Shown here piece after piece: positions 42,712 to 43,548 of a stretch of DNA of 64,000 nt. How positions within the stretch are numbered: the stretch's first letter is position 1; each line of letters opens with the position of its first letter. The notes beneath the pieces are model-generated. The model was not told the DNA's origin and ran no database searches. It saw only the letters and a program-made list of their open reading frames with translations. The DNA comes from an uncultured Alphaproteobacteria bacterium (GTDB taxonomy: Bacteria > Pseudomonadota > Alphaproteobacteria > Rs-D84): assembly GCA_944389135.1 (NCBI GenBank), contig CALXLG010000002.1, forward strand, positions 24,362 through 88,361. Direction: 5' to 3'. The position numbers were made by a program, and so were the translations under genes.

Positions 42712-42921
42712 TTATCTGGTCTTTACTTTCAGACAATTTTCACATTTTATTTTTGCTAAATCATAGTCAGATAAAAGCGATTTATATTTATTACAAGTAT
42801 GACACTTGAAACCCATGCATCCAAAACATTCACATTTACCATTATCGTTATAAGATGAAACGCATACATGAGTTCCAAACAAACCGCAAATTTTCTTTAT
42901 ATGATATTCTTCATTTGGCAT
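42712..42921 (-). CDS. Small Cys-rich protein, domain-B type (8 Cys, ends in VKTR)
   Basis: 69 aa. 'YNDNGKCECFGC...C..C.K...C..CLKVKTR' parallels the C-terminal half of the 126-aa upstream gene. Confidence 0.55.
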   Translation of the reverse strand: MPNEEYHIKKICGLFGTHVCVSSYNDNGKCECFGCMGFKCHTCNKYKSLLSDYDLAKIKCENCLKVKTR

Positions 42922-42941
42922 AACAGCACCTTTATTTAAAA

Positions 42942-43151
42942 TTATCGTGCTTTCTGATTAGATTTATATTGTTCTGCGTATTTAAATCTGTTGCACCAAC
43001 CATCAAACGGAACCAATTCTGGTCCACGAATTAGTACGGTTAAAAAGAAACCATAATAACATGCATTATAACCTTTATATTCACCATAATGCGTGCAATA
43101 CTTACACCACTGTGGGGGATATGAATAAATTTTCTTTTTTTTGTTGCTCAT
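42942..43151 (-). CDS. Small Cys-rich protein, domain-A type (CKYC.H...C...C..FKY)
   Basis: 69 aa. 'WCKYCTHYGEYKGYNACYYG...CNRFKY' parallels the N-terminal half of the 126-aa upstream gene. Confidence 0.55.
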   Translation of the reverse strand: MSNKKKKIYSYPPQWCKYCTHYGEYKGYNACYYGFFLTVLIRGPELVPFDGWCNRFKYAEQYKSNQKAR

Positions 43152-43167
43152 ATATATTCTCCAAAAA

Positions 43168-43548
43168 TTAACGCGTTTTTACTTCATAAGATAAACATTT
43201 TGTACATATTGGATTTGTCATATCAAACTTATCACAATTTTTACAATCTAATTTAGCACAAGAAATACACGGACATTTTCCATAATCATTATACGGCGAC
43301 TTCGCTACATCAACGAACCACATATCACAAATATATATTTCATTTTCTATTTGTTTTTTCCCGTACTTAAACTTTTTACAAGTTGCGTTTGGTGAAACGT
43401 GCGTCGGCCCCAAAACATGGCTTATAATTCCTTTATAACAAACACTTATCCCATTATAATAATCAAAATGTTTACAATATTTACAAATCTTTGGTTTATC
43501 ACTTATGATAGTTTCTTGTTTTGTTTTAACTTCTGACATTTTATTCAC
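43168..43548 (-). CDS. Cys-rich two-domain protein (domain A + domain B fusion)
   Basis: 126 aa. The N-terminal half is 'ICKYCKHFDYYNGISVCYKG...CKKFKY'. The C-terminal half is 'ICDMWFVDVAKSPYNDYGKCPCISCAKLDCKNCDKF...CTKCLSYEVKTR'. It overlaps the fmt stop by 8 nt. Confidence 0.6.
   Translation of the reverse strand: MNKMSEVKTKQETIISDKPKICKYCKHFDYYNGISVCYKGIISHVLGPTHVSPNATCKKFKYGKKQIENEIYICDMWFVDVAKSPYNDYGKCPCISCAKLDCKNCDKFDMTNPICTKCLSYEVKTR

Follow-up and report, generated by a model that had tools for sequence, protein, structure and literature searches.

The junction between fmt and truA in the def-fmt-truA operon of an uncultured alphaproteobacterium is occupied by a variable set of small genes for Cys-rich proteins, which we describe here from a 64,000-nucleotide (nt) stretch of its DNA (assembly GCA_944389135.1, contig CALXLG010000002.1, positions 24,362 to 88,361; hereafter the window) and from its relatives. 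As read from gene content across the clade, the junction is a birth-and-death cassette array whose genes, belonging to two families that we call A and B, undergo tandem duplication, fusion, decay and complete loss. An earlier, sequence-only reading of the window had described the three genes found there and missed the main feature: the site is hypervariable throughout the clade, and its cassettes pass from species to species. The explanation that we consider best, and to which we give roughly even chances, is that of an exchanged birth-and-death array of two accessory metallo-mini-protein families on the def-fmt-truA transcript.

In the window the fmt–truA gap holds three open reading frames (ORFs) on the minus strand, in the order AB, A and B, and nothing else. 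The coordinates of these three consecutive genes, and their insertion into the operon, are as the sequence-only reading had them. Gene AB (43168-43539) encodes a fused two-module protein of 123 amino acids (aa) from an ATG at 43539, or of 126 aa from an alternative GTG at 43548. Its A' module (43351-43494, aa 16-63) carries four Cys arranged as C19-x2-C22-x11-C34-x19-C54-x2-F and is matched by the family-A hidden Markov model (HMM) with a domain E-value of 4e-18. The B' module (43171-43332, aa 70-123; family-B HMM domain 2e-13) adds eight Cys (C71, C89, C91, C94, C99, C102, C112 and C115), bringing the protein to 12, and ends in VKTR. Gene A (42942-43151) encodes a 69-aa Cys4 mini-protein of pI 9.4 whose core resembles that of high-potential iron-sulfur proteins (HiPIPs; C16, C19, C31, C53 and F56; ...LIRGPELVPFDGWCNRF...). 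Gene B (42712-42921) encodes a 69-aa Cys8 mini-protein of pI 8.6 (C12, C30, C32, C35, C40, C43, C60 and C63, with an extra non-conserved C20 and the invariant N25), likewise with VKTR at its C-terminus.

AB, A and B are real protein-coding genes under purifying selection. The ratio of nonsynonymous to synonymous substitution (dN/dS) against the conspecific strain L004 is 0.20 for AB, 0.055 for A and 0.098 for B, compared with 0.066 for fmt and 0.061 for truA in the flanks, which rules out non-coding ORFs. The conserved Cys are unchanged in all 42 population variants (12 of AB, 15 of A and 15 of B), and the exact proteins are present, without an assigned name, in NCBI, ENA and Logan. The sequence-only reading had left room for frames that were non-coding or not conserved and had proposed a look at related genomes; there we found the ORFs conserved, with dN/dS of 0.05-0.20, the order def-fmt-AB-A-B-truA kept in other assemblies of the same species (L001-L006), and A/B sets that vary in 80 species.

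The proposed paralogy of the AB modules with the separate genes is borne out by BLASTP: the N-terminal half aligns with gene A at 36 % identity over 66 aa (E 2e-13) and the C-terminal half with gene B at 38 % over 61 aa (E 4e-10). The same figures speak against the idea that AB and its neighbours A and B are related by a recent fusion or fission event, which had also been suggested. At 36-38 % identity the halves are old paralogues, and the B' half has a stand-alone counterpart of 53 % identity in another species (L007).

The three genes are tightly packed into the operon. Its first gene is def (44344-44844, minus strand; peptide deformylase, PF01327), which overlaps by 4 nt with fmt (43541-44347, minus strand; methionyl-tRNA formyltransferase by Pfam, in a short 268-aa form), and its last is truA (41965-42708, minus strand; tRNA pseudouridine synthase A, PF01416). 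The spacers are 1 nt from the fmt stop to the AB ATG, 16 nt from AB to A, 20 nt from A to B and 3 nt from B to truA. Shine-Dalgarno-like motifs precede AB (GGTGA, 43545-43549), A (GGAG, 43159-43162) and B (AAGGTG, 42927-42932). The ATG at 43539 is the more likely start of AB, since it lies 1 nt past the fmt stop, has GGTGA 5 nt upstream and is the choice of public gene callers. The 8-nt overlap with fmt that had been proposed is therefore not favoured; the translational coupling to fmt proposed with it is implied whichever start applies. A sequence scan found no terminator-like site between def and truA, and the sole strong minus-strand promoter candidate for a def-fmt-AB-A-B-truA transcript lies upstream of def (44867-44894; TTGTCA-16-TAAAAT with an upstream TG, a consensus match only). 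This promoter-like site, the absence of an internal terminator and the tight spacing support the prediction that AB, A and B are transcribed together with def, fmt and truA. The G+C fraction is about 0.30 across AB, A and B against 0.38-0.40 in the flanks.

To place the locus in its clade we collected 212 relatives by fmt, of which 80 species-representative genomes (L007-L086) were kept for comparison of the gap, with about 12 kb examined per relative. The closest fmt genes (70-84 % aa identity) all lie in metagenome-assembled genomes (MAGs) of Candidatus Enterousia or of 'uncultured Alphaproteobacteria/Rickettsiales' from animal and human guts, and the source organism is a member of the Candidatus Enterousia clade in the order Rs-D84. 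These bacteria have genomes below about 1 Mb and are fermentative, without a respiratory chain (PMC12306168).

Across the 80 species fmt and truA overlap or adjoin in some cases and lie as much as about 770 nt apart in others; in the window's own species the distance is about 830 nt. Where the gap is not empty it contains one to three small Cys-rich ORFs on the same strand. We classed these by iterated family HMMs, adding sub-threshold B-like ORFs by eye, and nearly all fall into families A and B. Fmt and truA are directly adjacent, with no gene between them, in 11 genomes. A alone is found in 19 (single in 16, otherwise AA, A-A or A-A-A) and B alone in a further 19 (10 single, 9 B-B), while A-B occurs in 16, B-A in seven, a fused BA in three, A-B-B in two and AA-B in one; one genome (L035) has an unclassified pair and in another (L074) the contig is truncated. 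Related species tend toward a common architecture: in the clade nearest to the window most members have A-B and two are 'empty'. The empty-gap species carry the same 268-aa fmt.

Traces of gene decay accompany this variation. An apparent A remnant, truncated at its N-terminus, lies at L030:7135-7278, an apparent frameshifted B pseudogene at L048:6110-6331 and an apparent B remnant, a C-terminal stub, at L059:6912-7043; all three show that decay within the array is ongoing. The unclassified pair of L035 (6800-7510) consists of different Cys-rich proteins of 131 and 104 aa with the motif KCCxNC...CC...CxC...C..W. Both family HMMs miss them, and Pfam has no match for them; they may represent a third family or a very divergent A.

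Family A is present in 48 of 79 genomes and family B also in 48 of 79. The two co-occur in 29 genomes, where 29.2 would be expected if they were independent, a comparison that ignores phylogenetic non-independence. A type II toxin-antitoxin pair, whose two different genes always occur together, does not fit these counts (A alone in 19, B alone in 19). AB, BA and AA fusions all occur among the species, so that the AB of the window is one fusion among several. Statistical independence of the two families together with fusions in every combination does not indicate an obligate A+B partnership. For the view that A and B are obligate partners there is only partial support.

One feature of the array is that its content does not follow the divergence of its surroundings. 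A and B proteins are about 45 % identical where fmt and truA are 80-90 % identical, and their identity correlates only weakly with that of the flanks (Spearman 0.2-0.3). Conversely, near-identical cassettes are found in divergent flanks. A 185-nt B gap is shared by L012, L019, L021 and L039 at 97.8-98.9 % DNA identity with flanks at 76-82 %, the B-A cassettes of L026 and L033 are 96.7 % identical over 490 nt with flanks at 75.7 %, and the B-B cassettes of L042 and L061 are 97.3 % identical over 479 nt with flanks at 77.6 %. The breakpoints are sharp, identity being lost no more than about 30-45 nt from the stop of fmt and from the start of truA, and the exchanged tracts are seen extending into the homologous ends of both genes. 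Within the window's own species, most of AB (tract 43225-43540, minus strand) has only about 70-78 % DNA identity to L004 against about 96 % in the flanks, with a value of about 72 % for the AB allele. The synonymous divergence dS is 0.74 in this tract and 0.14 in the flanks, which, with a dN/dS of 0.20, points to an imported AB allele and not to positive selection. Cassettes that hardly differ although their flanks do, and an AB allele that differs sharply within one species, together indicate a cassette site exchanged by recombination.

The simplest mechanism would be that imported DNA replaces cassettes by homologous recombination, with the conserved ends of both fmt and truA as anchors. 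The 3' end of fmt and the 5' end of truA, the would-be upstream and downstream anchors, are the best-conserved parts of the flanks. Cassettes bounded by repeats or attC-like sites were considered and rejected, as we found no inverted or direct repeats and no attC-like sites at the gene borders; nor is there an integrase within +/-10 kb of the locus. A comEC ORF (39930-41993, plus strand; DUF4131 and Competence domains) converges on truA, the two 3' ends overlapping by 29 nt. Its position beside truA is evidence of DNA-uptake machinery encoded next to the cassette site and would fit the uptake of imported DNA.

Other hypervariable replacement loci are known, among them integron cassette arrays, the allele replacement of pneumococcal comC/blp and the orphan immunity-gene arrays of gut Bacteroidales. 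The present site shares with them a fixed address, variable small genes, cross-species replacement and breakpoints in conserved flanks. It differs in having no integrase or attC and no secretion, toxin or pheromone genes, and in lying inside an essential translation operon of a genome below 1 Mb with two Cys-rich families only.

As far as examined, families A and B appear confined to the Enterousia/Rs-D84 clade and to the fmt-truA junction. When the window and 86 loci were translated in six frames, about 1.1 Mb in all, the A and B HMMs gave matches in the gap only, and all six of the six members whose contigs were looked up sit between fmt and truA, including the most divergent B matches (P0045 and P0036). 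A HMMER search with the B profile over 1.84e9 cluster representatives returned only 22 proteins at E <= 1e-3, of 66-118 aa, none of them fused to another domain, and a word-indexed homologue search gave few matches (AB 2, A 18, B 10), each of them to a small protein without a name. Scans of IMG/VR and two scans of JGI metagenomes found no A/B relatives. Further Cys-rich small genes of the two families were also sought in the window and rejected. The only other small intergenic CxxC ORF there (11293-11442, minus strand) encodes a 49-aa protein (MATPKSKTSKARTAQRRSH...CSVCKSCGEKKRPHHVCPACGAK) of an L32-like zinc-ribbon type, which we take to resemble ribosomal protein bL32.

The sequence-only reading recognised neither domain type, and both families indeed appear to be previously undescribed, with no significant family match for the window proteins. 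That they are distinct, without mutual homology, is supported by hhalign, which rejects A and B as distant homologues (probability 0.5 %). In family A the residues C16, C19, C31, C53 and F56 (numbering of the window gene A) are invariant in 43 sequences. A Pfam scan of these 43 matched three to HIPIP (PF01355); the best, at E 5.2e-5 and 23.9 bits, is the one member above the gathering score of 22 bits, and the other two are below threshold. Weaker matches were to HPIP_like and to a Cys-rich MTHFR C-terminal family. With the A profile, a PDB sequence search returned nothing significant (best match ribosomal protein L36, E 0.11), and with an A sub-profile HiPIPs were the two top PDB matches, at E ~0.3.

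To compare the families directly, an alignment of six HiPIPs was made, in which the A. vinosum sequence was verified as identical to PDB 1CKU. Aligned by hhalign against these, the 43 A sequences gave a probability of 75 % and a score of 26.7 over 40 columns with the four Cys in register, corresponding to HiPIP C43, C46, C63 and C77. One hundred column shuffles of either alignment scored 8.2 +/- 1.8 (maxima 14.5 and 13.3), about 10 standard deviations lower; the reversed control scored 8.4, and rubredoxin, L36 and 2x[4Fe-4S] ferredoxin scored <=12.8. Family A and HiPIP have in common the motif C-x2-C ... C ... [LF]-F-[GP]-[PG]-x2-V-x3-G-W-C-x2-[FW], and the window gene A reads DGWCNRF around its fourth Cys. 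The two also have in common a size of about 55-85 aa, an aromatic-rich core and the Cys order C-x2-C ... C ... G-W-C-x2-[FWY], with [LF]-F-[GP]-[PG]-x2-[VI] ahead of the last Cys. We conclude with moderate confidence that module A resembles a HiPIP-type [4Fe-4S] core more than a zinc ribbon. The earlier suggestion of zinc-ribbon or other metal binding thus survives as to metal binding, which is probable, and is not favoured for A as to the ribbon. An AlphaFold2 model of AB from a 25-row alignment reached a pLDDT (predicted local distance difference test) of 38.6.

HiPIPs are periplasmic electron carriers of respiratory and photosynthetic chains, exported by the twin-arginine (Tat) pathway, with a [4Fe-4S] cluster that cycles 3+/2+ at high potential, whereas A is predicted to be cytoplasmic, comes from a non-respiring fermenter and has a basic tail ending in R. 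A precedent is offered by the small subunits of glycyl-radical enzymes (GREs; BSS beta/gamma, HPAD gamma and MASS beta/gamma), which are cytoplasmic HiPIP-like Fe-S proteins of 60-90 aa in anaerobes with a non-catalytic accessory role; MASS delta is rubredoxin-like, and GREs use several different small Cys-rich subunits together (PMC13450708). Unlike these, A and B differ in copy number from genome to genome and pass between species. No GRE or activase is found near the A/B genes, and none among the 10 large ORFs of the window; no sequence similarity of A or B to PDB chains of GRE small subunits was found.

In family B, C30, C32, C35, C43, C60 and C63 are invariant in a 42-sequence alignment and C12 and C40 nearly so. 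Asn25 is invariant in alignments of database members and the position of His18 is variable. The pattern of gene B is C-x17-C-x-C-x2-C-x4-C-x2-C-x16-C-x2-C, the last gap varying among members, and the family takes in a divergent 'FCKYK..VVLNEYN' subtype. Module B has no significant Pfam, NCBIfam or PDB sequence match; from single members Pfam gives only weak noise, to fingers of the RING, B-box and Sec23 types. An AlphaFold2 model from 30 family members (pLDDT 62.5) has a beta-hairpin, a short helix and C-terminal helices, and a fold comparison from a model of only this quality gave no match. The presence of eight conserved Cys within 60 aa of a cytoplasmic domain points to two metal sites. An analogy is offered by the double-zinc, cross-braced fingers (RING, B-box, CXXC-type), which likewise have eight Cys in about 60 aa, for the most part paired as C-x2-C and sufficient to form two tetrahedral sites, but the Cys pattern and invariant Asn of B agree with no family that we could match.

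The N-termini of the window proteins are polar and Lys-rich (MSNKKKK..., MSEVKTKQ..., MPNEEYH...) and, as the sequence-only reading had noted, show no signal peptide; there is no twin-arginine or hydrophobic segment either. A and B proteins are probably cytoplasmic metal binders. Both families are basic (median pI 9.1 for A and 8.6 for B) and end almost always in Arg or Lys: 33 of 35 A proteins do so (30 R, 3 K), as do all 39 B proteins (28 R, 11 K), compared with 9 of 43 other ORFs in the window. A general trait of translationally coupled genes was rejected as the reason, such tails being found in 4 of 15 tightly coupled genes. The terminal Arg codons differ between genes, which implies that selection acts on the protein. 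We read this tail, common to two unrelated families, as a docking or recognition element.

Taken together, these observations would be explained as follows. In module A the four invariant Cys would hold a cubane [4Fe-4S] cluster in the HiPIP-like arrangement C-x2-C ... C ... [LF]-[FG]-[GP]-x2-V-x3-G-W-C-x2-F, and in module B the eight conserved Cys would hold two metal centres, Zn or Fe-S. Expression would ride on the def-fmt-truA transcript, while the content of the array is reshuffled in situ and replaced between species. We hypothesize that A and B, not being an obligate pair, are dispensable, interchangeable accessory proteins that dock on a conserved, probably anionic partner through their Arg/Lys-terminated tails. 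This docking is the weakest step; the GRE small subunits, as HiPIP-like mini-proteins, would be a precedent for the accessory role.

Since the genes are embedded strictly in a translation and tRNA operon, one alternative is that they encode zinc-finger RNA-binding mini-proteins with Zn(Cys)4 and Zn2(Cys)8 sites, whose basic tails on tRNA, rRNA or mRNA would modulate Def, Fmt, TruA or the ribosome. A pI of about 9, Lys/Arg-rich termini, L36 as the best (non-significant) PDB match of the A profile and the weak RING, B-box and zinc-finger noise of B agree with such a role. None of the matches to zinc-ribbon or ribosomal families is significant, however, and the A motif agrees with HiPIP specifically and not with the L36 or rubredoxin controls. 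Moreover, A and B are absent from 11 of the 79 species, which have the same 268-aa fmt, and wholesale swapping and copy-number change would be unusual for core translation factors. We regard this alternative as unlikely. It is also conceivable that the genes are selfish mobile mini-cassettes driving their own insertion at fmt-truA, like a homing element or an integron cassette, which would account for an insert that lies between two conserved genes, is present in some genomes and absent from others, and recurs almost unchanged in genomes that have diverged. This we judge very improbable: besides the missing integrase, attC-like site and flanking repeats, the proteins are too small for a nuclease and have no conserved catalytic His or Asp (His18 of B being variable), both families are under purifying selection with all metal-ligand-like Cys conserved, and there are no copies in phage contigs. 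Products that are small, Cys-rich, variable and clade-restricted might finally recall precursors of ribosomally made modified peptides or leaderless bacteriocins. With no maturase, radical-SAM, transporter or immunity gene within +/-10 kb, no leader/core organisation, conservation across the whole 50-60-aa domain and the resemblance of A to a folded Fe-S protein, we find this scarcely credible.

Alternatively, the genes may be conflict cassettes, either effectors of a type IV secretion system (T4SS) with a positive C-terminus or immunity-like factors, whose diversity is kept and spread by frequency-dependent selection. Presence/absence and copy-number variation, the fast divergence of A and B relative to fmt and truA, the spread of cassettes between species and the divergent AB allele within one species would all follow. 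Substrates of VirB/D4 systems reportedly carry positively charged C-terminal signals (Vergunst et al. 2005), and an R/K tail is nearly universal in both unrelated families, with virB8/9/10-like genes and a Pmp-repeat protein in the same window; the charge criterion is non-specific, though. Rs-D84 bacteria have also been proposed as probable obligate symbionts or parasites (PMC12306168). Against this stand the low dN/dS (0.05-0.3) with no sign of positive selection, the lack of any relevant PADLOC match for the locus or significant PHROGs match for the window proteins (best E 0.02), and the housekeeping operon, some 15 kb from the T4SS genes; metal-cluster proteins would also be awkward as secretion substrates. 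Conflict cassettes in this general sense seem to us rather unlikely. A bolder version, that an exchange site in a housekeeping operon trades metallo-cassettes for host or partner interaction (T4SS substrates by their Arg tail, or immunity-like factors) and is a new kind of contingency locus with two orphan Cys-rich folds, is a long shot.

Several points weigh against the accessory metallo-mini-protein explanation that we prefer. The HiPIP link exists at the level of the family profile only and is moderate there (75 % probability; PDB E ~0.3), and the window A and AB proteins have no Pfam match even at E <= 10 and none in NCBIfam or PDB. The third and fourth Cys are 19-23 residues apart in A, about 7 more than the ~13-14 of canonical HiPIPs (a 7-residue insertion in hhalign, after the third Cys and ahead of the FGP motif), and the N-terminal segment of HiPIP is absent, only 10-16 residues preceding the first Cys. 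Given this insertion, the missing segment, the lack of an export signal and of a match above threshold for the window proteins, we call A HiPIP-like on its shared motif and do not file it as a HiPIP. Sequence cannot decide between Fe-S, Zn and disulfides in either family. About 14 % of species are without both, so any role must be dispensable, and the spread of near-identical cassettes across species suggests selection of a type that conflict loci show more often than housekeeping cofactors do. The docking partner is a hypothetical one, and every sequence comes from MAGs or metagenome contigs.

Around the locus the neighbouring genes encode, among others, MarR, an RND efflux system, HAD, RmuC, Def, Fmt, TruA, ComEC and CTP synthase. 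The C-terminal domain of the short fmt product matches Pfam Formyl_trans_C weakly or faintly, and its 268-aa length is clade-wide; E. coli Fmt has about 315 aa. The T4SS genes of the window lie on the plus strand and comprise a CagX/VirB9-like gene (24913-26445), a TrbI/VirB10-like gene (26467-28971) and a possible VirB8 (24148-24885), and on the minus strand (7358-10075) lies the gene for a protein of 905 aa that carries Chlamydia Pmp repeats. A life in association with a host or partner would agree with both. Following a tRNA-Gln (52308-52381), the region 52355-52960 contains four tandem copies of an 81-nt unit, about 175 nt apart and 78-100 % identical, each opening with the tRNA-Gln 3' end and holding a hairpin and then a T-run, as well as a two-copy repeat of 198 nt. 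This array could be the scar of repeated integration or a repeated terminator module. The ORFs 3679-5964 (plus strand, 761 aa) and 54187-55620 (minus strand, 477 aa) have no Pfam match at E <= 1e-5.

In bacteria with genomes below 1 Mb one would expect dispensable genes to be lost and recombination to be rare, yet at this junction a changing set from two orphan mini-protein families is kept and whole cassettes are repeatedly replaced between species. If module A is truly of HiPIP type, HiPIP-like proteins would reach cytoplasmic, non-respiratory settings beyond the subunits of glycyl-radical enzymes, and module B, if it binds metal as proposed, would be a new Cys8 metal-binding fold. For this uncultured gut lineage the locus provides a compact marker, easy to type, of recombination and of the diversity of strains, and an entry point to what these symbionts exchange, and why.

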